Shown here piece after piece: positions 1 through 61,204 of a DNA stretch of 64,000 nucleotides. How positions within the stretch are numbered: position 1 is the stretch's first letter; each line of letters opens with the position of its first letter. Source of the DNA: Acidobacteriota bacterium (GTDB lineage Bacteria > Acidobacteriota > Vicinamibacteria > Vicinamibacterales > UBA2999); assembly GCA_016213695.1 (NCBI GenBank), contig JACQZV010000025.1, forward strand, positions 14,965-78,964. The letters are read 5' to 3'. Made by a program: the position numbers and the translations under genes. The notes below the pieces were generated by a model that did not search any database, had not been told where the DNA came from, and saw only the letters and a program-made list of their open reading frames with translations.

Positions 1-731
1 TCCGGGCCTTCGACGTGCCGCTCGTAGAGCAGGCGCCCCGTTCCGTCGTACTTCTGGAACATCGGACGCCCCGTGAGGACGACGTAGAAGTAGCCGCCCG
101 TCGGGTCGGCGAGCGGCAGCCCCGCGTTGAGCGCGAGATGCACGTCGCGGTCCTGCTCCTGGCCGGTGTCGCGCAGCCTCCCGAAGCTCCGCTGCGGGTA
201 TCCCGACTGTGAGTACTCGGTGACGAGCGCGCCGCTTTCCGGGTGGCTGATGAGCAGCGTCGGTTCGGTGAACTGAATCGACGCGATGCCGCTCAGCACG
301 AGCGGCCCCACCTCAACCAGTGCGGTCCGCTGCCGGGCCGGCAGGAAGAAGCCGGCGCGGCGGATCCCGCCGCCGCCGAAGATCTGGATCCGGTCGACGC
401 CGCGCGGCGCGTCCGCGACGACAAACGACCCGCTCGGCGAGGTGTCGAAGCCGCGCGGCTGCAGGATGCGTCCGAGCTCGGGGCCGATCTCCACCAGCTT
501 GATCGCCGCCGTCTTGTCCGCATCGACGGCGTACACCGTGTGGCCGCGCCGGTCGAAGACGTAGTACGGCCCGCCGGGCGCCTGCTGAAAGCCGAGCGGC
601 TCTTCGAACAGGCCGGCGATGTGGGGAGGCAGGCCGCCGGTGGCGCGCAGCACCTCGACGGCGAGCCGGGCGCCGGCCTGCGTGGTGAGGAGCGCGGATG
701 CCACGAGAAGAGCGGTCACAACGCGGCGCAT
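1..731 (-). CDS. hypothetical secreted protein; only the 5' part is present because the gene runs off the left edge
   Basis: Hand translation of the minus strand from ATG at 731..729 gives MRRVVTALLVASALLTTQAGARLAVEV..., with a signal-peptide-like N-terminus. The frame stays open to position 1. It is missing from the ORF track because there is no stop inside the window. No family was recognised. Confidence 0.5.
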   Translation of the reverse strand, partial: MRRVVTALLVASALLTTQAGARLAVEVLRATGGLPPHIAGLFEEPLGFQQAPGGPYYVFDRRGHTVYAVDADKTAAIKLVEIGPELGRILQPRGFDTSPSGSFVVADAPRGVDRIQIFGGGGIRRAGFFLPARQRTALVEVGPLVLSGIASIQFTEPTLLISHPESGALVTEYSQSGYPQRSFGRLRDTGQEQDRDVHLALNAGLPLADPTGGYFYVVLTGRPMFQKYDGTGRLLYERHVEGP

Positions 732-4672: not shown

Positions 4673-4708
4673 CAGATCACGACCGTGTCAGTCTGTTCCA
4701 ACCACAGC

Positions 4709-5923
4709 CTATCGAGCAACATCCGTATCGGTTGCTTCGGGCGTCCCGACGCCGGCCGCGCGGGCCGGCGCGTGGGTCGGCGTGTCTTTGGGCAGCGGCG
4801 CCGCGAACAGCGCGGCCACGAGCGGCATGAAGGCCATCACGACCAGCGCCCGCTCGATGCCGATGCGGTCGGCCAGCATGCCGACAAACGGGACGGCAAT
4901 GCCCCCCATGCCCCACGCGAAGCCCATCATCAGCGACGAGACGGTGGCGGCGCTGATCGGGGCGATCGTCTGGCCGAAGGTGACGTTCACCGGCAGCGTC
5001 GACTGCAGCAGAAATCCGCCGATCGAGACCAGCGCCACGAACAGCCATCCGGTCTGCGCCGGCGCGAGCGCGAGAAACGGCACCGCGAGGATGAGCGACC
5101 AGAGAATGACGTTGCGCGCGCCGTAGCGGTCGGCCAGGGGCCCGCCGAGAAACCCGCCGACACTGCTGACGAACAGGTAGACGGCGCTGACCGTGCCCGC
5201 CTCCGCCAGCGACATGCCGCGGCGAGTCAGCATCACCGGCATGAACGTGGCGAAGCTCAGGGCGCCGAGCGTGCGCAGCACCACGATCATGTAGAGCAGC
5301 GTGAGCGGCTTCCGGTACGGCGCGAGCGCGCGGAAGCCGCCGGCGGCGCCGGGCTCGGTGAGACGCTCGACCCGGGGCACGCGCCGGAGCACGACGGCGA
5401 GAATCGCCAGCCCGGGGAGCATCAGGAGCGGCATCCACCGCAGGCCGTACCGCTCCGCGAACGGCGCGAACACGAGCGGGCCCAGCGAAAAGCCGAGCGA
5501 GCCGCCGGTGATGTGAAACGACATCGCGTAGCCCTTGCGCACGCCGGCCAGCCTGTGGACCATCGCGGCGGCCGGCGGATGAAACGCCGCCGCGCCGAGC
5601 CCGCCGGCGACGAGCACGACGCCGAGCATCACCGGCGTGGACGCGAGGCCGATGAGCGTCAGCAGCGAGACGGTCACGATCGGCCCCGCCACCAGCAGCA
5701 CGCGCGGGCGCCAGCGGTCCGCCACATGGCCGAAGCCGAGCTGCGCCACCGAGTTGGCCATCTGGAAACACATCTGCAGCGTGCCGGCGGCCGCGAGCGA
5801 GAGGCCGAGCTGCGGGATGAGCAGCGGCAGCAGCGGCGCGTAGATGTTGCTGAAGCCGTCCACCAGGAAGTGGGTGCTTGCCAGCAGCAGCACCGTCGGA
5901 TGCAGTCCGAGCGGACGTTTCAT
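4709..5923 (-). CDS. MFS transporter
   Basis: Lies in ORF 4709..5962. 12-TM-like hydrophobic profile with an MFS-type loop ADRWRPR. The start was moved to ATG 5923 (MKRPLGL...) because the first 13 codons of the ORF lie in the repeat element. Confidence 0.8.
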   Translation of the reverse strand: MKRPLGLHPTVLLLASTHFLVDGFSNIYAPLLPLLIPQLGLSLAAAGTLQMCFQMANSVAQLGFGHVADRWRPRVLLVAGPIVTVSLLTLIGLASTPVMLGVVLVAGGLGAAAFHPPAAAMVHRLAGVRKGYAMSFHITGGSLGFSLGPLVFAPFAERYGLRWMPLLMLPGLAILAVVLRRVPRVERLTEPGAAGGFRALAPYRKPLTLLYMIVVLRTLGALSFATFMPVMLTRRGMSLAEAGTVSAVYLFVSSVGGFLGGPLADRYGARNVILWSLILAVPFLALAPAQTGWLFVALVSIGGFLLQSTLPVNVTFGQTIAPISAATVSSLMMGFAWGMGGIAVPFVGMLADRIGIERALVVMAFMPLVAALFAAPLPKDTPTHAPARAAGVGTPEATDTDVAR

Positions 5924-6008: not shown

Positions 6009-7607
6009 TCATCGTCGAAACCGCCGCAGCACGATCGCCATCCCCTCCCGGAACTCCCGGATGCGCAGCAGGTGCGCGGCGGCGGCGAGCACGGCGAGAG
6101 CGATGCCGATCGACGCGATCAGCCGGCCCACCTGCGGCCAGAGGCCGTCGCCCGGCAGCCACCGGACGCCCGCCCGGTCGGCGGCGGCGGCGGCCGCCGC
6201 CATCACCAGCGACGCGACGGCGATGCGGACGAACGACCCGGCCACGCGCGCGCCCTCCAGGCCCCCGAGCCGCCGCTGCAGCAGCACGATCAGGATCGAC
6301 GCGTTGAACAGTGCGGCGATCGACGTGCCGAGCGCCAGTCCCCGGTAGCCCATGATGCGGACCAGCGCCAGGTTCAGCACGGCGTTCACCGCGACCGTGG
6401 CCACGCTCACCGCCACCGGCGTCCGGTTCCGGCCGAGCGCGTAGAACACGGGCGACGCGATCCGGACGACGGAATAGCCGACGAGGCCGAGCGCGTAGAA
6501 CTGCAGCGCGGCGGCGGTCGCCGCGGTGTCGGCGGCGGTGAACGCGGCGCGCTCGAAGATCACGCGCACGATCGGCACCGCCAGCGCCAGCAGGCCGGCC
6601 GTGGCCGGCACGTTCAGGATGAACATCAGCGACAGCCCGTCGGCCACCGTGCGGCGCACGTGGTGGTCCTCGCCGCCCGCCGCGTGGCGCGACACCGCCG
6701 GGAGCGTCGCCGTCGCGATCGAGATGCCGAACAGCCCGATCGGCAGATACATCAGCCGGAACGCGTAGTTGAGCCACGAGACCGCGCCGGTCCCCTCGCC
6801 GGTGGCGAGCACCGTGTTGACGAACACGTTCACCTGCGTCGCCGCCAGGCCGAGCGTGCCGGGCCCCATCAGGACGAGCACGCGCCGGAGGCTCTCATCG
6901 CGCCAGTCGAGCGCCGGCCGGTACGCGAAGCCCTCGCGCCGCAGCGCCGGCCACTGCACGGCGACCTGCAGCACGCCGCCGACGAGCGTCCCGATGGCGA
7001 TGCCGGCGATCGGCGCCAGGCCGAGGGCCGGCATGAGCGGCACCAGCAGGAACGCGCACGCGATCGTCGCCACGTTGAACATCGCCGGCGAGAGCGCGGG
7101 AATGAAGAAGCGGTGCAGCGAGTTCAACATGCCCATGCACGCCGCCGCCAGGGCGACCAGCATGAGGAACGGCAGCATGATCCGCGTCAGCGAGACCGTC
7201 AGTTCTATCTTGCCCGGCACGCTGCGGTAGGCCCCGGCGAACAGGTCGACAATCGGGCCCGCGAACACGATGCCGAGCACGACGAGGATCGCCGTGATGA
7301 CGATGAGCGCGTTGACCACGTTGTTGCCGACGCGCCAGGCCGACTCCCGGCCGTCGGTGGCGAGGTGGCGGGTGAAGGTGGGCACGAAGGCGCTGCTCAT
7401 CGCGCCTTCGGCAAACAGGTCGCGGACGAGATTGGGAATGCGGAACGCCACGTTGTAGGCGTCCATGGCGTTGCCGGCGCCGAAGAGCGCGGCGAGCACC
7501 TGCTCGCGGACGACCCCGAGGATCCGGCTCAGCATGGTCGCGACGCCGGCCGAGGCGGCGGACCGCGCGAGCGTGGAGGAGGACGAGGACGGGGAGTTAG
7601 GCGCCAA
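6009..7607 (-). CDS. murJ: lipid II flippase MurJ (MviN)
   Basis: 532-aa polytopic ORF. The N-terminus ...MLSRILGVVREQVLAALFGAGNAMDAYNVAFRIPNLVRDLFAEGAMSSAFVP is the MurJ signature. TTG start at 7607; the start is uncertain. Confidence 0.9.
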   Translation of the reverse strand: MAPNSPSSSSSTLARSAASAGVATMLSRILGVVREQVLAALFGAGNAMDAYNVAFRIPNLVRDLFAEGAMSSAFVPTFTRHLATDGRESAWRVGNNVVNALIVITAILVVLGIVFAGPIVDLFAGAYRSVPGKIELTVSLTRIMLPFLMLVALAAACMGMLNSLHRFFIPALSPAMFNVATIACAFLLVPLMPALGLAPIAGIAIGTLVGGVLQVAVQWPALRREGFAYRPALDWRDESLRRVLVLMGPGTLGLAATQVNVFVNTVLATGEGTGAVSWLNYAFRLMYLPIGLFGISIATATLPAVSRHAAGGEDHHVRRTVADGLSLMFILNVPATAGLLALAVPIVRVIFERAAFTAADTAATAAALQFYALGLVGYSVVRIASPVFYALGRNRTPVAVSVATVAVNAVLNLALVRIMGYRGLALGTSIAALFNASILIVLLQRRLGGLEGARVAGSFVRIAVASLVMAAAAAAADRAGVRWLPGDGLWPQVGRLIASIGIALAVLAAAAHLLRIREFREGMAIVLRRFRR

Positions 7608-10852: not shown

Positions 10853-11895
10853 GGCGCGACCGGCGCCCCGGCGTCCGGCACGTACTCGTGAAAATGCGCG
10901 CGGTAGAAATCGAGCGTCCGCCGCAGCCCCTGTCCGAGCGGCGTCGCCGGCCGCCAGCCGAGGACGCGCGCGATGCACGAGGAGTCGGCGTAGAAGTCGC
11001 CGATGTCGATCGCCTTCTTGTCCGGCGGCCACTCCACAAACCGGTACCGGCCGCTGCCGGAGGTGGCGACCAGCAGCTCCACCAGATCGCGATGCGAGAT
11101 CGGCGCCAGGCCTCCCACGTTGAACACCCGGCCGTTGGACGCGTCGGTCGCCGCGGCGCGCAGGAAGGCGTCGGCGGCGTCGTCCACGTAGACGAAATCG
11201 CGCAGCTGGGAGCCGTCGCCGTAGATCTGGATCTCGCGATCTTCGATCGCCAGCCGGATGAACCACGCGATGAAGCCCTGGCGATTGTGCTTGATCAGCT
11301 GGCGCGGCCCGTACACGTTCGTCAGGCGCAGCGAGCAGGCGCGCACGCCGAACACGTCGTTGTACAGCAGATGGTAGTACTCGCCGGCGGCCTTGTTGAT
11401 GCCGTTGACGTCGGTCGGCTTCACCAGTTGCTGCTCGGACACCGGCAGCGTCTCGGGGCGGCCGTATACCTGCCGCGTGCCCGCGAACACCACCTTGACG
11501 GCCGGGTTGTTCCGCCGGCACGCCTCGAGAATGAACAACTGGCTGCGGCAGTTGATCTCCAGATCCGTGTACGGATCCTGCATGCTGTCGATGTGGCTGA
11601 CCTGTCCCGCGAGGTTGAAGATGACGTCCTGCTCGCGCACGAGATAGTTCATCGTGCTCTGCTGGCGCACGTCGGCGATGTTCACCCGAACGCGATCGTC
11701 GATTCCCGCGATGTTGAACAGGTTGCCCCCGTATTCCGGGATGAGCGAGTCGACGATGAGCACCCGCGCGCCGAGCCGGACCAGATGGTGGGCGATCGTG
11801 CTGCCGATGAACCCCAGCCCGCCGGTGATCATCACACGGCGGCCGCGGTAGAACGCGAGGTAGTCACCGCCGGGGGCCATCGACGGATCGGTCAT
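10849..11895 (-). CDS. NAD-dependent epimerase/dehydratase family protein (non-canonical NxxxK motif)
   Basis: ATG at 11895 gives MTDPSM.... Rossmann motif ITGGLGFIGS and LRLTNVYGPRQ are present. The start overlaps the upstream stop (ATGA). Confidence 0.85.
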   Translation of the reverse strand: MTDPSMAPGGDYLAFYRGRRVMITGGLGFIGSTIAHHLVRLGARVLIVDSLIPEYGGNLFNIAGIDDRVRVNIADVRQQSTMNYLVREQDVIFNLAGQVSHIDSMQDPYTDLEINCRSQLFILEACRRNNPAVKVVFAGTRQVYGRPETLPVSEQQLVKPTDVNGINKAAGEYYHLLYNDVFGVRACSLRLTNVYGPRQLIKHNRQGFIAWFIRLAIEDREIQIYGDGSQLRDFVYVDDAADAFLRAAATDASNGRVFNVGGLAPISHRDLVELLVATSGSGRYRFVEWPPDKKAIDIGDFYADSSCIARVLGWRPATPLGQGLRRTLDFYRAHFHEYVPDAGAPVAP

Positions 11896-32171: not shown

Positions 32172-33446
32172 ATGAGGCAAGGCGATCCACGCGGCGCAGA
32201 TGCGGCGAAGCTTCGGCTGACGCTCGATCCCGACTCGAGGCTGAGCGCCAAGATCAAGGTGATCGGGGTGGGGGGCGGCGGCAGCAACGCCGTCAACCGC
32301 ATGGTCGCGGCCGGGCTCGAAGGCGTCGAGTTCATCGTGGCCAACACCGACGCGCAGGCGCTCGGGCAGAACCCGGCGGCCGTGCGCATCCAGATCGGCC
32401 AGACGCTGACCAAGGGGCTCGGCGCCGGGGCCGACCCGCACATCGGGCGCCAGGCGGCGCTCGAGGACACCGAAACGACCATCCAGTCGCTCTCGGGCGC
32501 CGACATGATCTTCGTGACGGCGGGCCTCGGCGGCGGCACCGGCACGGGCGCGGCGCCGGTCATCGCGAGCCTGGCCAGCGAGCTCGGCGCGCTGACGGTG
32601 GCGGTCGTGACCAGGCCGTTCAAGTTCGAGGGCAAGAAGCGCGCGCGCCACGCCGAAGAGGGGCTCGAGGCGCTGCGTGAATGTGTCGACACCGTCATCA
32701 CGATCCCGAACGAGCGCCTGCTCACGATCATCGACCGGCGCACGTCGCTCACCGACGCGTTCGGCATGGCCGACGACGTGCTGCGGCAGGCGATTCAGGG
32801 CATTTCGGACCTGATTCTCGTGCCGGGGCTGATCAACCTCGACTTCGCGGACGTCAAGACGATCATGTCGGGCATGGGGGTCGCCATGATGGGCACCGGC
32901 GTGGCCGAGGGCGACAACCGGGCGATGCAGGCGGCGCAGAAGGCCGTGTCGAGCCCGCTGCTCGAGGACGGCTCGGTGACCGGCGCGCGCGGCGTGATCA
33001 TCAATGTGACCGGCGGGCCGGATCTCTCGCTGATGGAGGTGAACGAGGCGTCGTGCGTGATTCAGGAGGCGGCGCACGAGGACGCCAACATCATCTTCGG
33101 GGCGGTCGTCGATCCGACGCTGAAGGGGAAGGTGAAGATCACGGTCATCGCCACCGGCTTCGATCGGGTGGGCGGCGCGCGTGCGGTGCCGGCGGCCGCC
33201 GTGCAGACTCCCGTGGATCTCCAGAACTACACGGCGCACCTGGCGCGCACGGCGGCGGCCGGGACGGCGTCCGCGGCGGAGCAGCCGGTGATGGAGATGC
33301 ACGCGCCGCAGGCGCCGCAGGCGAGCGCCCCGATGCCGCTGACGGTGAGCCGGCGCCCGGGGCTGGAGCTCAGCCTGCCCGGGCTCGAGACGGCCGACGT
33401 GGCGTCGCCGCTCGACGTGCCGGCGTTCCTGCGTCGGCAGAACTGA
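32172..33446 (+). CDS. ftsZ: cell division GTPase FtsZ
   Basis: Contains [28 protein letters not shown] and the conserved C-terminal peptide [12 protein letters not shown]. Confidence 0.97.
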
Positions 33447-33452
33447 CGCAGG
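33408..33452 (+). repeat. 45-bp direct repeat, copy 1 (last 13 codons of ftsZ plus 6 nt)
   Basis: CCGCTCGACGTGCCGGCGTTCCTGCGTCGGCAGAACTGACGCAGG, identical to 35032..35076. Confidence 0.95.
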
Positions 33453-35031
33453 TCGACTACGCCTCCCCGGCCTCGCGCCGCCGGATGTCGTCCTGGACGG
33501 GGATGATCCGGCGGGGCCACGCCCGCTGTCATTGCGTTTTTGTGCCTGCACCGAACTGCACAGACTTCTGACACCGTTTTTGACATCCTCGAGCGTACAG
33601 CGACAGAATTCGGCCTCCTTTCGGAACACGGCGGTCAGTATTGGAGGTCGTGATGCGAGTTCCCTTCCGTGTCCTTGCGCCGGGCTGCGCACTCCTTTCC
33701 GTTCTGGTTCTCACGGGGCCGGCGTATTCCCAGGACATTAGCCGGCGCATCGTCGGGCCGTCAGCGATTACCGGCATTCCTTCAAGTGCGACACACTGTG
33801 TGTCGTCCGACGCAGCCAACGTTCATCCGATTGGTTGGATGGCTAACGGGTCTCGATACGCGATCACGTTCGATACGGATAACAACTTCCAGCCGGTGAC
33901 CGCCGTGGCCCGTATCGATTTCAGCGGAAGAACCCAGTCCAGGCTGTATGGCGGTCCTGAACTCCAGGCGACGGCGTCGAGTCCGGGAACGATGGTGCTC
34001 TTCGTGGCTGGCAGACGCCAGGCCGGCTGCTATCGCTACAAGGTGGAAATCCAACCACCGGCGGCGTCGACCGCCACAACACCGCCCATCCCCGACGTGG
34101 CGTCAGCCCCTGCCGCGATGAGTGGCCCGCTTGCGATCACGGGGACACCTTCGAGCGCCAAGCATTGTGTCGCTGGCAGCTGGGTCTCGAATGCCCACGG
34201 GATTGGGCGTGTCGAAGCGGGAAGCCAGGTTCGAATCTCGTTCTCCACGGATTTCAATGCCATCGCCGCGCTCAGTCTGATGAACCCGGAAGCAGAGACG
34301 GGCAGATTCTGGCTTGACGATGACTCCGGGGGTGCTTCCGCTCCGTCAATCAACGTCACGGTACCGGAGTCAGGAACGCTCGCATTGCTCGTGGCAGGCG
34401 TGAACGGGGCTGCCGGGTGCTATCAGTACAAAGTCGAGGTCACCGGTCCCTCAGCCACCACCACGACATCCAGTTTTGCCGGCGCATGGACCGGCCAGGT
34501 CCGCGCCATCGGGTGTTTTGATGACGGCGTGCTCGACGGCTATTGCGGTTCCATCACCACGGCATCCTTGAGCGTGACGCTGAGCCAGACTGGCACCAGC
34601 GTGAGCGGATTGGTCCAATTGGGTAGCCTCAAGCCGGTCGCGGTGTCGGGAAGCGCGCAGGGCAGCCGCCTGGTTCTCAATGGCCGAGGCGAGTATTCGC
34701 CTGGCGCCAATGGCTTCCAGATGACGTATGAAGACTGGGACACTTCGCTCAGTGGCACCAGTAGTATGGGCGGCAATTTTTCACTACGCTTGTTCCCGAC
34801 GGCCAGCGGTGTCCCGGGAGGCGTGCGTTGGGCGTTCACATTGGTCGGCGTGACCCGCTGAGCGATTCCCGCCGCCGGATCGACTTACAAGGACAGTCCC
34901 GCTCAGAGACTCGCGCACGCGCGACAAGCCGATGCGCTCGGATCGTCCCGGAATATCAAGGCGGGGGGTGGGCAGGCGGGCGGAGGTGTGCGCCTGAGGT
35001 TGTTCTAACCTCGTCGTCTTCGTCGGGATAT
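33453..35031 (+). mobile_element. putative horizontally acquired insertion (islet) at the ftsZ 3' end; no recombinase gene
   Basis: Bounded by a perfect 45-bp direct repeat. G+C is about 53-60% on hand-counted 60-nt lines, against about 72% in ftsZ. It carries a single cargo gene. Confidence 0.45.
33653..34861 (+). CDS. hypothetical secreted protein with two tandem Cys-containing ~110-aa modules plus a third domain
   Basis: GGAGG lies 5 nt before ATG 33653. Signal peptide MRVPFRVLAPGCALLSVLVLTGPAYS. The two modules share AITG.PSSA.HCV...G.CY.YKVE. Confidence 0.7.
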   Translation: MRVPFRVLAPGCALLSVLVLTGPAYSQDISRRIVGPSAITGIPSSATHCVSSDAANVHPIGWMANGSRYAITFDTDNNFQPVTAVARIDFSGRTQSRLYGGPELQATASSPGTMVLFVAGRRQAGCYRYKVEIQPPAASTATTPPIPDVASAPAAMSGPLAITGTPSSAKHCVAGSWVSNAHGIGRVEAGSQVRISFSTDFNAIAALSLMNPEAETGRFWLDDDSGGASAPSINVTVPESGTLALLVAGVNGAAGCYQYKVEVTGPSATTTTSSFAGAWTGQVRAIGCFDDGVLDGYCGSITTASLSVTLSQTGTSVSGLVQLGSLKPVAVSGSAQGSRLVLNGRGEYSPGANGFQMTYEDWDTSLSGTSSMGGNFSLRLFPTASGVPGGVRWAFTLVGVTR

Positions 35032-35076
35032 CCGCTCGACGTGCCGGCGTTCCTGCGTCGGCAGAACTGACGCAGG
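35032..35076 (+). repeat. 45-bp direct repeat, copy 2 (orphan ftsZ 3' fragment, likely the original ftsZ end)
   Basis: Identical to 33408..33452. Track ORF 34828..35070 ends in ...[12 protein letters not shown] only because of this relic. Confidence 0.95.
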
Positions 35077-35078
35077 CG

Positions 35079-35098
35079 CCGGGTCCGGAAGGACCCGG
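35079..35098 (+). terminator. GC-rich hairpin CCGGGTCC-GGAA-GGACCCGG (probable native ftsZ terminator)
   Basis: Perfect 8-bp stem with a GGAA tetraloop, 2 nt after repeat copy 2. There is no clear T-tract. Confidence 0.45.
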
Positions 35099-35243
35099 CC
35101 CGCGGTCGCATCCCGGCCTGCCGCCACCTCCGGGCGCGTGCCGGTGGTACACTGCATACACCCACGGCACGCGCGAGCGCCGGCGGCGCAGCCGCAGCTC
35201 GCGCACGATCTCTCCGTTCACCCGTTCAGCCGTCCGCAGAGAC

Positions 35244-36989
35244 ATGAAGCACTGGCGCCAGCACGAGCGCGCGCTCGAACTCCTGTCGAAGGAAGTGGGA
35301 TACGTGCGCAAGCCGCACGGCGGCAAGCTGCGCGTGGCGCTGGCGTTTCCCAACACGTATTTCGTCGGGATGTCGAACCTCGGCTTCCAGACGGTGTACC
35401 GCCTCTTCAACGCCGAGGCCGACATCGTCTGCGAGCGCGTGTTCCTGCCGCCGAAGACGGAACTGGCCGAGCAGCTCGCCTCCGGCGCGCCGCTCGTGAC
35501 AGTCGAATCGCAGACGCTCGTATCCGAGTTCGACGTGCTGGCGTTCTCGGTGTCGTTCGAGTGGGACTACACCAACGTGCTGACGCTGCTGCGGCTGGCG
35601 GGGCTCCCTCTGCGCGCGGAGGCGCGGAGCCACCGGCATCCGCTCGTGGTGATTGGCGGCGCGGTCACGTTCGTCAATCCGGAGCCGCTGGCGCTCTTTG
35701 CCGACGTGATTGCCGCGGGCGAGGGCGAAGCGCTCGTCCCGTCGCTGCTGCGCGGGTTCCAGACGGCGTCGGACCGGGCCGATCTGCTGCGCCGGCTCGC
35801 CGCCGAGCGCGGGATGTACGTTCCCTCGTTCTACGACGTGCGGTATGCGGACGACGGGACGATTGCGCGCGTGGAGGTGAAGGCGGGCAGCGGCGCGCCG
35901 CCGGTGGTCCGCAAGGCGGCGCTCAAGACCACCGACGCGGTGGATCCGCCGGCCACGAGCATCTTCACGCCCGACACCGAGTTCGGATCGCGGCTGCTCG
36001 TGGAAGTCGTGCGCGGGTGCGCCAACCTGTGCCGCTTCTGCTGGGCGGGCTACAACTACCTGCCGGTGCGCGCGTTCCCGACGGACCGGATTCTGGCCAT
36101 CGCCGAGCGCGCGCGCCCCTATTCGAGCCGCGTGGGACTCGTGTCGATCGCGCTCTGCGATCACCCGGAGATCGAGGAGATCCTCACGCGGCTGTCGGCG
36201 ATGGGGTACTCGATCAGCCCGGCGTCGCTCCGGCTCGACGACATCACACCGACCATCGTGCGGCTGCTGCGCGAGAGCGGCGAGCGGACGATTACCATCG
36301 CGCCCGAGACCGGCTCCGACCGCCTCCGCCGCGTCATCAACAAGACGGTCACCAACGACGAGATCCTGGCCAGCGCCGAGCGGATCTTCGCCAGCGGCAT
36401 CGAGAACCTGAAGCTGTACTTCATGATCGGATTGCCGACCGAAACCGACGAGGACCTCGTGGCGATTCGCGATCTGACGCTGCAGCTGCGGGCGGTCATG
36501 CTCGCGCACGGCCGCGGCCGCGGACAGCTCGGGCGCATCGTCGGCAGCGTGAATCCGCTGGTGCCCAAGCCGGGAACCGCGTATCAGTGGCTGCCGATGG
36601 AAGGCGACGCCTCCGTCGAACGGAAGATCAGGCGGATGCGGACGCTCATGGCCGGCATCGACAACGTCTACGTCAACATCAAGTCGGAGCGGCATTCCTT
36701 CTACCAGGCGCTGCTCTCGCTCGGCGACCGCCGCGTGGCGCCCGCCATCGAGGCGGCCGAGCGTAACGGCGGCAACTGGCGCGCGGCCGTCGCCGACAGC
36801 GGCGTCGACGCCGACTTCTTCGTGTTCCGCGACCGGTCGCACGACGCGGTGCTGCCGTGGGACATCATCGACGGCGGCATGAAGGACGAGTTCTTCCGCG
36901 CCGAGTTCGACAAGTCCCTCCGCGAGGAATGGACCCTGCCACCGAAGCGGCAGAAGGAGAACAGCCGCCTCCTGCCCGTGCTGCAGTAG
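35244..36989 (+). CDS. B12-binding-domain radical SAM protein (TIGR03960-like)
   Basis: 581-aa ORF with a CxxxCxxC cluster (RGCANLCRFCWAG) and the N-terminus LRVALAFPNTYFVGMSNLGFQ. Confidence 0.85.
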   Translation: MKHWRQHERALELLSKEVGYVRKPHGGKLRVALAFPNTYFVGMSNLGFQTVYRLFNAEADIVCERVFLPPKTELAEQLASGAPLVTVESQTLVSEFDVLAFSVSFEWDYTNVLTLLRLAGLPLRAEARSHRHPLVVIGGAVTFVNPEPLALFADVIAAGEGEALVPSLLRGFQTASDRADLLRRLAAERGMYVPSFYDVRYADDGTIARVEVKAGSGAPPVVRKAALKTTDAVDPPATSIFTPDTEFGSRLLVEVVRGCANLCRFCWAGYNYLPVRAFPTDRILAIAERARPYSSRVGLVSIALCDHPEIEEILTRLSAMGYSISPASLRLDDITPTIVRLLRESGERTITIAPETGSDRLRRVINKTVTNDEILASAERIFASGIENLKLYFMIGLPTETDEDLVAIRDLTLQLRAVMLAHGRGRGQLGRIVGSVNPLVPKPGTAYQWLPMEGDASVERKIRRMRTLMAGIDNVYVNIKSERHSFYQALLSLGDRRVAPAIEAAERNGGNWRAAVADSGVDADFFVFRDRSHDAVLPWDIIDGGMKDEFFRAEFDKSLREEWTLPPKRQKENSRLLPVLQ

Positions 36990-37876: not shown

Positions 37877-37943
37877 GCCACCGAAGCCCTGAGGTCCGGA
37901 GGTCACCACATTCGTTGTCTCCGTGGCTCCGTGTCTCCGTGGC
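37877..37943. repeat. degenerate copy of the octamer-repeat palindrome
   Basis: The right arm TCTCCGTGGCTCCGTGTCTCCGTGGC (37918..37943) is intact. The left arm GCCACCGAAGCCCTGAGGTCCGGAGG is only partly complementary. Confidence 0.5.
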
Positions 37944-49199: not shown

Positions 49200-50375
49200 T
49201 CACAGTCGCTCGAGGAAGTCACGCCACGGCAGCGCCCGGACCCCCGGCGCCAGAGCCTCGGTCGGAGGCTTCACGGTCGGCGCCTCGTGTACGAGGAACA
49301 TGTTCACCGCGGTGTCCTTCCGACGAGCCTTCCTGGCCGCATCACGAAGCCGTTGCATCGGCGCCGCCATCGCGGGCGTCACGGTGCGTACCGCTTTGCA
49401 TTCCACCAGCGTGAGGGCGCCGCCCGGTCCCGGCGTCACGAAGTCCACTTCAAGACCTTGTTCGTCGCGGAAGTGATAGATCTCCCGCCGTCGTCCGGCA
49501 TTGACCTGCGCCTTGACAATTTCTGACGCGATCAGGCCTTCAAAGAGGCTCCCGGTAAACGGCGACTTGGCCAACTCCGCCGCCGAATCGATGCCCAGCA
49601 GGTGACACGCAAGCCCGGAATCGGCGAGGTACACCTTCGGTGACTTGATGAGGCGCTTCCCGAGGTTCTCATAGAAGGGCGGGACGACGAGGATCTGCGC
49701 GGTCGTCTCCAGCACGCCGAGCCATTGCGTAATGGTGGGCACGCTGACCCCGAGCGGCGCGGCCAGATCGGTCTTGTTGAGCACCTGCCCGTGACGGCTG
49801 GCGACGAGCGCCAGAAAGCGGCGAAACGTCGCGAGGTCTCTGACCGCGGTCACGGCCCGAACATCCCGTTCGAGGTAGGTCTGCAGGTACGAGGCGAACC
49901 ACAACCGGGCATCAGCCGGGCGGGCCAGCACCTCCGGATATCCGCCGTGCAGCAGGGTCACCTTCGATGTCTCCCGCGCCGACATCGGGTAGAGCTGCAG
50001 CACCGCCGCGCGCCCCGCCATCGATTCCGAGACGCCGTGCATCAATGGCGCGTCCTGCGAGCCGGTGAGCAGCCACTGGCCGACGCGGCGCGGCTGGCGA
50101 TCGATGCGCGACCGCACGAACGCGAGCACCTCCGGGACGTGTTGCACCTCGTCGAGGATGACGGGGGTATCTACCGCGTCGAGGAATCCCTGCGGGTCGG
50201 CGCGAAGCCGCGCCACGATGTCGGGATCTTCCAGCAGGACATAGCCTGCGCGGGGAAAGAGCCTGCGCAGCATCCATGTCTTCCCGGCCCGGCGCGGCCC
50301 GGTCAGCACCACCGCGGGAAAGCCCTTCACGGCCCTCAGGACGTGTCGCTCCAGCGCCCGCTGGATGTGGATCAT
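49200..50375 (-). CDS. AAA+ ATPase with a DUF4143-type C-terminus
   Basis: 391 aa with the Walker A LTGPRRAGKT and Walker B ILDEVQ. The C-terminal part is typical of the ATP-binding DUF4143 family (from memory). G+C is somewhat lower than in the neighbours. Confidence 0.75.
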   Translation of the reverse strand: MIHIQRALERHVLRAVKGFPAVVLTGPRRAGKTWMLRRLFPRAGYVLLEDPDIVARLRADPQGFLDAVDTPVILDEVQHVPEVLAFVRSRIDRQPRRVGQWLLTGSQDAPLMHGVSESMAGRAAVLQLYPMSARETSKVTLLHGGYPEVLARPADARLWFASYLQTYLERDVRAVTAVRDLATFRRFLALVASRHGQVLNKTDLAAPLGVSVPTITQWLGVLETTAQILVVPPFYENLGKRLIKSPKVYLADSGLACHLLGIDSAAELAKSPFTGSLFEGLIASEIVKAQVNAGRRREIYHFRDEQGLEVDFVTPGPGGALTLVECKAVRTVTPAMAAPMQRLRDAARKARRKDTAVNMFLVHEAPTVKPPTEALAPGVRALPWRDFLERL

Positions 50376-60796: not shown

Positions 60797-61204
60797 TCAG
60801 GCTGGCGTTACGGTCCTGATGCGAGCGCCCACGCGTCTGTGTTGATCGTCGTCCCACGTGGCGAGCGGCATCCCCAGCGCCTGCGCGAGCGCGACGTAGA
60901 GTGCGTCCGCACCGCGGAGCGCCCGGCCGGCCGCCGTCTCCATCGCGAGCGTCCACAGCTCGGCGTCGGGAATCACAATCACCACATTCGGCAGCTGTTC
61001 GATCGCGCGGACGATCTGACGGGCCAACGCGGCGGACCCCGTTCGACGCGCGACCGCACCGGCCGCTTCCAGCAGGCCCAGCGCCGGCGTGACCAGCGTT
61101 TCCCTGGACGACACTTCGGCGAGCCACGACCGCGTCACCTCGTGGTGCCTATCGCCGGGGATCGCGGCGCTCACCCACACGCTCGCGTCGAGGACGATGC
61201 TCAC
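60797..61204 (-). CDS. vapC: PIN-domain toxin VapC
   Basis: 135 aa starting MSIVLDASVWV, with a later ...GADALYVALA. Confidence 0.8.
   Translation of the reverse strand: MSIVLDASVWVSAAIPGDRHHEVTRSWLAEVSSRETLVTPALGLLEAAGAVARRTGSAALARQIVRAIEQLPNVVIVIPDAELWTLAMETAAGRALRGADALYVALAQALGMPLATWDDDQHRRVGARIRTVTPA

Follow-up and report, generated by a model that had tools for sequence, protein, structure and literature searches.

Elements that integrate by means of tyrosine recombinases are delimited on both sides by direct repeats 8-60 bp long and are often found in the 3' ends of housekeeping genes (PMC5704250). One of the two repeats takes in the target gene's end, and the gene therefore is not disrupted (PMC5704250). 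Cis-mobilizable elements (CIMEs) lack integration genes and retain both attL and attR (PMC5704250). Here we describe an insertion with an architecture of this kind at the 3' end of the cell-division gene ftsZ. It lies in a 64-kb stretch of DNA, termed the window, from an Acidobacteriota bacterium (assembly GCA_016213695.1, contig JACQZV010000025.1, positions 14,965 to 78,964), and it consists of 1,579 bp between two copies of a 45-bp sequence.

It is well supported that the window has undergone a recent insertion of foreign DNA, with attL/attR-like architecture and with FtsZ preserved. As for mechanism, we favor the view that the locus is the mark left by a CIME-like element, decayed or mobilized in trans, that integrated site-specifically into the ftsZ 3' end, and we assign this view a probability of roughly 0.55. 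An earlier reading of the same DNA, made by a model from the letters without database searches (the sequence-only reading), had proposed integration of this type, with the element supplying a replacement 3' end for the gene.

Duplication of the ftsZ 3' end

The features on which the insertion is recognized are as follows.

32172-33446, forward strand: ftsZ, 424 amino acids, intact, the last gene of the division and cell wall (dcw) cluster (Pfam Tubulin, 6.5e-48; FtsZ_C, 2.2e-35)
33408-33452, forward strand: direct-repeat copy 1, attL-like, the functional ftsZ 3' end (repeat search and sequence)
33428-33452, forward strand: palindrome within the repeat, overlapping the ftsZ stop codon, also at 35052-35076 (inverted-repeat scan and folding)
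33453-35031, forward strand: inserted foreign segment, 1,579 bp (composition and absence in relatives)
33653-34861, forward strand: cargo gene, 402 amino acids (open reading frame and composition)
35032-35076, forward strand: direct-repeat copy 2, attR-like, a displaced, non-functional ftsZ 3' end (repeat search)

The 45-mer CCGCTCGACGTGCCGGCGTTCCTGCGTCGGCAGAACTGACGCAGG is present at 33408-33452 and again at 35032-35076 without a single mismatch. It contains the last 12 sense codons of ftsZ, the TGA stop codon and 6 further nucleotides. No other copy exists in the window even when up to 3 mismatches are allowed (chance expectation 0.00), and the pair is the sole exact direct repeat of at least 22 nt in the whole 64 kb. 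The 60 nt outside the two copies, compared in register, agree at 18 of 60 positions on the left and 13 of 60 on the right. Because these identities are at the random level, the edges of the repeat are sharp. Thus, both the perfect repeat that rebuilds the FtsZ C-terminal peptide and the lack of similarity past its outer boundaries, as claimed in the sequence-only reading, are borne out, and the repeat occupies these two sites only.

FtsZ itself is full length and retains both Pfam domains and the conserved C-terminal tail. The last residues of FtsZ are the docking site for FtsA and other anchors. Only one of the 12 sense codons in the repeat ends in A or T (CGT, for Arg), as expected for this genome, and the copies differ from the corresponding sequences of the closest relatives at 6-9 of 45 positions.

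A palindrome, CCTGCGTCG-GCAGAAC-TGACGCAGG, takes up the final 25 nt of the repeat (33428-33452); its 9-nt arms match at 8 of 9 positions and are separated by a 7-nt spacer. The stop codon and the 6 further nucleotides make up its right arm, and its end coincides exactly with the repeat boundary. The palindrome folds as a 10-bp stem and is repeated in copy 2 at 35052-35076. The equivalent segment shows no palindromy in four relatives (loci L005, L085, L086 and L089 in our numbering). The palindrome is suggestive as a candidate recombinase core site or RNA hairpin, and it was noticed post hoc.

Empty sites in related genomes

Three features lie to the right of copy 2.

35079-35098, forward strand (entered as 35078-35099): GC hairpin CCGGGTCC-GGAA-GGACCCGG with no U-tract (folding z = -3.1)
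35143-35179, forward strand: promoter- or leader-like motif GGTGGTACACTGCATACACCCACGGCACGCGCGAGCG upstream of the radical-SAM gene, untouched by the insertion (conserved in relatives)
35244-36989, forward strand: B12-binding radical-SAM gene, TIGR03960-like, the conserved right neighbor of ftsZ (Pfam, NCBIfam and synteny)

The nearest FtsZ proteins in databases are 84-87% identical to that of the window and place it in the Vicinamibacterales (Acidobacteriota). The searched collections contain no genome of the same species, the best FtsZ match being 86-87%, and exact-protein look-ups with FtsZ and with the cargo protein returned no other contig.

At ~50 related Vicinamibacterales loci, the orthologous radical-SAM gene comes next after ftsZ, at a distance of 70-500 bp, and no cargo homolog is present. 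This arrangement holds for the closest relatives (L005, L085, L086-L088 and L089-L091), and the cargo gene is missing from every relative examined, over a range of FtsZ identity from 87% down to ~60%. A second FtsZ tail was found in none of the 72 related loci that have an FtsZ tail. When positions 33453-35076 are removed from the window, a 173-bp spacer remains that is colinear with the spacers of the relatives. Because the sites of relatives are empty and a second tail is absent from all 72 loci, the insertion is derived, lineage-specific and recent. The zero differences between the two copies and the unameliorated composition of the cargo gene also indicate a recent event. The sequence-only reading had pointed to an empty site as the arrangement to look for, and the relatives have it: a single FtsZ tail, then the hairpin or promoter and the radical-SAM gene. 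A scan of ~1 Mb of related loci for exact direct repeats that bracket lower-GC DNA scored only the window; a repeat pair at locus L003, described below, shows no GC contrast.

The GC hairpin with the GGAA loop follows copy 2 only, as had been noted before, and its folding z-score supports it as a real hairpin. In L085, a homologous GC hairpin occupies the same place, directly 3' of the ftsZ stop codon. The element at 35079-35098 is therefore probably the native post-ftsZ hairpin; the label of terminator, which the sequence-only reading had attached to it, is suggested by its position. If so, ftsZ transcripts would now meet the hairpin within the repeat and an inverted repeat in the left arm of the insert first, the native hairpin being 1.6 kb away.

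The motif upstream of the radical-SAM gene is ~37 nt long (GGTGGTACACTnnnTAnAyCCACGGCAC..GCGAGCG) and lies 70-200 nt upstream of that gene. It is kept in 29 related loci (within L005, L006, L008-L056 and L085-L091), as well as in the window, with at most 10 substitutions, and the rest of the spacer is unalignable. The motif looks like an extended -10 promoter followed by a conserved 5' leader. The leader has no Rfam hit, and RNAalifold gave no consensus structure. Judging from its position, the radical-SAM gene appears to keep this conserved upstream motif after the insertion.

A few relatives carry other genes in the post-ftsZ spacer. Asparagine synthase and GT1 glycosyltransferase genes precede the radical-SAM gene in L013 (6261-9156), a fragment of a type I restriction-modification hsdM gene adjoins ftsZ in L035 (6341-7195) and an oxidoreductase gene in L043 (6312-8063). 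None of these three loci has a duplicated FtsZ tail. In L005, the closest relative, the ftsZ 3' end (~6060-6270) is read through in the wrong frame, with the correct tail in another frame. This apparent frameshift is probably a long-read homopolymer error in that metagenome-assembled genome (MAG). Long palindromes are also found just 3' of ftsZ in L089, L012, L020 and L011, with arms built of AAATCCC (L089, L012) or GTCCGTG (L020). They resemble two intergenic palindromes of the window itself (745-811 and 37877-37943), whose arms are short tandem repeats (CCACGGAG/CACGGAG). These spacer palindromes are REP-like or terminator-like and recurrent in Vicinamibacterales spacers.

Composition and anatomy of the inserted segment

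The GC content of the insert is 0.625, compared with 0.694 for the window (standard deviation 0.024 for windows of the same size), and the lowest-GC 1,579-bp window in all 64 kb starts at 33501. At third codon positions, the GC content (GC3) of the cargo gene is 0.70, versus 0.94 in ftsZ and 0.93 in the radical-SAM gene. The codon adaptation index (CAI) of the cargo gene is 0.374, versus 0.748 +/- 0.053 for 28 host genes (z = -7). The low GC content had first been seen from hand counts of G+C in 60-nt stretches (32/60, 33/60 and 36/60 in the insert, 43/60 in ftsZ), all of which are correct. A window-wide calculation of GC and codon usage extends them: the insert is the GC minimum and the most atypical region of the window.

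The non-coding arms of the insert contain the following features.

33469-33523, forward strand: imperfect inverted repeat in the left arm, with 18-nt arms that are 83% complementary (inverted-repeat scan)
33580-33609, forward strand: sigma-70-like promoter match, TTGACA-18-CAGAAT, 10 of 12 positions (consensus scan)
33643-33647, forward strand: GGAGG ribosome-binding site, 5 nt before the ATG at 33653 (read from the sequence)
34872-34880, forward strand: third copy of CCGCCGGAT, in the right non-coding arm (motif count)

The left arm (33453-33652) is GC-rich at its start, and the right arm (34862-35031) is 170 nt long. The inverted repeat of the left arm holds two inverted copies of the 9-mer CCGCCGGAT, at 33478 on the forward strand and at 33506 on the reverse strand. 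The 9-mer occurs 4 times in 64 kb, and 3 of these copies are within the 370 nt of insert arms, a concentration to be read in light of the motif having been picked post hoc. Together with the palindrome of the repeat, the CCGCCGGAT sites resemble the accessory and core sites of a tyrosine recombinase, a likeness that is suggestive and was likewise noticed post hoc.

The cargo gene has its own GGAGG, as the sequence-only reading had stated. The promoter-like TTGACA-18-CAGAAT named there is recovered by the scan as a match, and its role as a promoter is putative, given by its likeness to the consensus. The window has just two copies of the 8-mer CGTTTTTG, at 33535-33542 and 33575-33582, in direct orientation and 40 nt apart. 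The pair lies just upstream of the -35 element of the promoter-like site and overlaps it, and it may be an operator pair.

At neither end of the insert (33453 and 35031) did the inverted-repeat scan reveal a terminal inverted repeat. The insert also contains no subterminal hairpins of the type found in IS200/IS605 insertion sequences and no Rfam family. By inspection, the one hairpin in the right arm is of 6 bp (GAGGTT-GTTCT-AACCTC) and lacks a GTTRRRY core. An 80-amino-acid reading frame that runs through copy 2 (34828-35070) was considered as a decoy peptide with an FtsZ tail and was rejected, as its GC content is flat over the three codon positions (0.67/0.63/0.65) and its CAI is 0.31. The cargo gene is the only reading frame of the insert with a coding signature.

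The cargo protein

By inspection, the cargo protein begins with a hydrophobic segment like that of a signal peptide. This is followed by two tandem domains of ~125 amino acids that share conserved HC...GCYxYKVE motifs and by a C-terminal domain of ~135 amino acids that also stands alone in other proteins. No family in Pfam, NCBIfam or PHROG matches the protein. Its relatives comprise 145 of 1.8 billion cluster representatives, the named members are Acidobacteria, and the best match other than itself is 48-51% identical.

An AlphaFold2 model predicts beta-sandwiches at residues ~45-140 and 170-265 with a predicted local distance difference test (pLDDT) score above 90; the C-terminal domain gave no confident model (pLDDT below 40). 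Foldseek matches are tandem binding modules of the collagen- and carbohydrate-binding kinds, namely the ColG collagen-binding domains, a CBM22 tandem, SGBP-B and the N-terminal domain of DeCLIC. The cargo is most likely a secreted or surface ligand-binding protein with two predicted domains of the beta-jelly-roll binding type. Its function would be accessory, at the surface or outside the cell, and nothing ties it to cell division.

Homologs of the cargo gene are found in chromosomal contexts that are unrelated, frequently in second position in an operon of two genes. Neither ftsZ, an integrase nor the same repeat was found beside the homologs inspected (L001-L004 and L094-L098). One of these loci, L003 (GCA_041643275.1, JBGGGY010000006.1), has a perfect 30-bp direct repeat with sharp edges at 4705-4734 and 11073-11102, bracketing 6.4 kb. 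The enclosed segment contains a 216-amino-acid gene of unknown function whose stop codon is within the left repeat, two near-identical cargo-family genes (in a 2,726-bp tandem segmental duplication), a DUF433 and DUF5615 (PIN-like) pair, and a HerA_C fragment. A C5 DNA methylase gene lies just outside. The segment has no integrase and no GC contrast.

Searches for related elements

No integrase, transposase, relaxase or excisionase was found among the 36 scanned proteins of the window, and none is encoded in the insert. The observation in the sequence-only reading that integrase, transposase and terminal inverted repeats are missing is thereby confirmed and extended to any recombinase among these 36 proteins. 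A second copy of the insert is also lacking in the window.

Beyond the window, an exact 27-mer of the repeat core and the left junction gave 0 matches in viral contigs, a 24-mer of the core and a 25-mer of the right arm gave 0 matches in metagenome contigs, and blastn of the insert found no match among plasmids and phages. No larger relative, attP or integrase-bearing relative was detected in a set of 5.8 billion proteins, in 1.8 billion cluster representatives, in viral and metagenome contigs, in plasmids or in phages. A degenerate pattern of the FtsZ tail recovered, among viral contigs, a Mu-like phage repressor and one chance match, and no attP. Thus, of the earlier proposal of attL/attR-like integration with a replacement 3' end, the architecture, the empty sites and the composition stand, and the expected attP or integrase-bearing relative did not appear.

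The Mu-like phage contig (L092, IMGVR_UViG_3300020156_000461) carries the domains DDE_2, HTH_Tnp_Mu_2 and Mu-transpos_C. Its CI-type helix-turn-helix repressor-like protein (208 amino acids; 1-627, reverse strand) includes an internal near-perfect copy of the FtsZ C-terminal docking peptide. This protein could tether to FtsA-type partners or interfere with division.

Origin of the insertion

If the favored reading is correct, the segment at 33453-35031 is a small horizontally acquired island. It would have entered by conservative site-specific recombination, most likely catalyzed by a tyrosine recombinase, between an att site borne by the element and the ftsZ 3' end. With the same 45 bp in both partners, the product would have the 45-mer on each side. 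Copy 1 would complete ftsZ, leaving the essential gene and its FtsA-docking tail intact, and copy 2 would be the displaced duplicate, adjoining the post-ftsZ hairpin that is native to the site and the radical-SAM promoter, which is left untouched. The likely recombinase core would be the 9-7-9 palindrome, whose end is the edge of the repeat, and the three CCGCCGGAT sites of the non-coding arms may serve for accessory binding. Having no recombinase now, the element would be the CIME-like remainder of some larger integrative element or else a minimal one that is mobilized in trans. We infer that the cargo gene is expressed from its own promoter-like site and ribosome-binding site.

We rank a CIME-like or trans-mobilized islet first because the architecture matches the literature on tyrosine-recombinase elements. 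The length of the repeat is within the range of 8-60 bp, and the type of target, a gene 3' end, also fits. Several points weigh against this view. Neither the insert nor the 36 scanned window proteins include an integrase, excisionase or relaxase. The collections searched yielded no larger relative, no attP and no second instance of the cargo gene, the arms or the 45-mer core, although this is weak evidence for uncultured soil bacteria. The att segment of the element must match this lineage at 45 of 45 positions, even though the closest relatives differ at 6-9, and a match of this kind fits mechanisms that copy or use host sequence equally well. The arguments from the palindrome and the 9-mer are post hoc and therefore suggestive. 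In addition, the case comes from a single assembled genome.

A dedicated recombinase would be unnecessary if a circle of ~1.62 kb with 45 bp identical to the ftsZ 3' end had integrated by one RecA-dependent crossover of the Campbell type. Such an event automatically places the insert between perfect homologous copies. It therefore suits the 45/45 identity of the copies, their host-like codons with 6-9 differences from relatives, and the lack of a recombinase in the insert and the scanned window proteins. In addition, 45 bp exceeds the minimal length for RecA-dependent exchange. However, recombination over 45 bp of homology is very inefficient, the end of the repeat at the palindrome edge is left unaccounted for, and the foreign circle must already have held this host's exact 45 bp, the easiest source of which is a previously excised integrative element. 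We regard this route as unlikely. Equally unlikely, in our estimation, is that the insert is a working minimal cassette (one gene and ~370 nt of arms with three CCGCCGGAT sites) moved in trans by a chromosomal recombinase that recognizes the 9-7-9 palindrome, so that the ftsZ end would be a landing pad for single-gene cassettes in Vicinamibacterales, or else that some mechanism makes 45-bp duplications at hairpin-forming gene ends. The 30-bp-flanked island of L003, with its cargo-family genes, is a possible second case of such a system. However the insert arose, a recombination event between the 45-bp repeats could remove it precisely, in which case the present state would be reversible.

The insert could also be a product of assembly or of population heterogeneity, in which a separate molecule or minority variant that shares the 45-mer was threaded into the chromosome path and the dominant genome has an empty site. 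The window is evidently part of a metagenome-assembled Vicinamibacterales contig, since all of its relatives are MAGs; the insert is a singleton in every database searched; and exact repeats at both junctions are the expected product of a loop in the assembly graph. Yet such a loop needs a second molecule with the lineage-specific 45-mer on both sides of the cargo gene, which would amount to the same element in circular form and hence to the same biology. Moreover, 45 nt is, to our knowledge, no common k or k-1 value (21, 33, 55, 77, 127, 141), the junctions are clean, the cargo reading frame is intact and there are no Ns. We consider this explanation improbable. Somewhat harder to credit is a transposition-like or repair insertion, in which a break with a 45-nt stagger at the hairpin-forming ftsZ 3' end was filled in to give a long target-site duplication. 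The perfect identity and host-like sequence of the copies would then follow automatically, the failure to find an att-bearing relative would be expected, and the palindrome of the target could direct structure-specific cleavage. However, we know of no bacterial transposase, casposase or retroelement that gives a 45-bp duplication, the known sizes being ~2-15 bp, and the insert has no terminal inverted repeats, subterminal hairpins of the IS200/IS605 type or transposase. The ~1 Mb of related loci likewise contains no comparable short exact repeat pair around a lower-GC insert, the pair in L003 being of ordinary GC content. Finally, the cargo gene could have been here ancestrally, with losses in every sampled relative and with the repeat as an unrelated local duplication. 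The post-ftsZ spacer is indeed variable in some relatives (L013, L035, L043). Nevertheless, composition and synteny effectively refute this proposal: GC3 is 0.70 versus 0.93-0.94 and the CAI deviates by z = -7, the gene is missing in every relative from 87% to ~60% FtsZ identity, the product of deleting the insert is colinear with the relatives, and the best homolog of the cargo protein is ~50% identical, with homologs in unrelated contexts.

The surrounding window

The window is a core chromosomal region that includes the dcw cluster, the B12-binding radical-SAM gene, rpoD, dnaG, mutS2, murJ and others. The dcw cluster ends with murC (from inspection of the translated reading frame), ftsQ, ftsA and ftsZ (by synteny with annotated relatives). 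The only tRNA gene found in a scan of the window is 7 kb from the insert. Rfam and tRNA scans around the insert revealed nothing relevant, and these scans rule out an integration site of the tRNA or tmRNA type. Two genes of types that are frequent in accessory or defense contexts occur in this otherwise core region, neither of them near the insert. One encodes an AAA_14/DUF4143 ATPase (49200-50375, reverse strand) and the other a PIN-domain protein (60797-61204, reverse strand).

Significance and comparison with known systems

The locus captures a recent horizontal acquisition at single-nucleotide resolution in Vicinamibacterales, an uncultured and abundant soil lineage. It also indicates that the ftsZ 3' end can be a safe integration site if an element rebuilds the last codons. 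Full-text searches turned up no description of a natural element at this integration site. If the element was mobilized in trans, the host recombinase and the pair of att sites would possibly be useful for genetics in Acidobacteria. As it stands, the insert is another integrase-less islet with a putatively accessory secreted protein.

Several classes of mobile DNA differ clearly from the ftsZ insert. Insertion sequences, transposons and miniature inverted-repeat transposable elements have terminal inverted repeats, a transposase that is encoded within them or acts in trans, and duplications of 2-15 bp; the insert has a 45-bp duplication, no transposase and no second copy in the window. Integron cassettes carry attC at their 3' end and lie in arrays beside intI/attI. 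No intI was found among the scanned window proteins, and there is neither a cassette array nor a GTTRRRY core. Integrative mobile elements exploiting Xer recombination (IMEX) integrate at the chromosomal dif site between 28-bp dif-like sites; by inspection, the repeat is the coding end of ftsZ, and its GC-rich palindrome does not resemble the dif consensus.

Islands and prophages at the 3' ends of tRNA and tmRNA genes follow the same logic as the favored reading: crossover in a symmetric stem-loop, a replacement 3' end and a partial duplicate of the gene at the far junction. The target here is instead a protein gene with drifting synonymous sites (6-9 of 45), so that the att match would be lineage-specific rather than broadly conserved. 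Remnants of staphylococcal cassette chromosomes (SCC and pseudo-SCC) at the 3' end of rlmH (orfX) are recombinase-less cassettes whose repeats contain the last codons of a conserved housekeeping gene and which either stay where they are or are moved by recombinases acting in trans. SCC repeats are ~15-18 bp and are recognized by serine recombinases (Ccr), and the host and cargo are unrelated to those of the ftsZ insert.

Also comparable are islands, integrative and mobilizable elements (IMEs) and integrative and conjugative elements (ICEs) that use tyrosine recombinases at the 3' ends of protein genes, such as guaA, trmE/thdF (SGI1), rplL, rpmE, rpsI and yicC. They share with the ftsZ insert repeats of 8-60 bp, a rebuilt gene end, foreign composition and an empty site in relatives (PMC5704250). 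These elements encode an integrase at one end, whereas the ftsZ insert has none. In the CIMEs derived from ICESt1 and ICESt3 at the fda 3' end of Streptococcus thermophilus, too, attL/attR-type repeats take in a housekeeping gene's 3' end, the cargo is short and genes for integration or transfer are missing (PMC5704250); in the present case the att function of the repeats is putative. The collections searched contained no parental ICE or IME that shares this att. The ftsZ insert differs from these CIMEs in its target, in its phylum (Acidobacteriota) and in its very small size (1.6 kb, one gene). The type of structure is well known; the ftsZ 3' end is an unusual target, and the host belongs to a poorly studied phylum.

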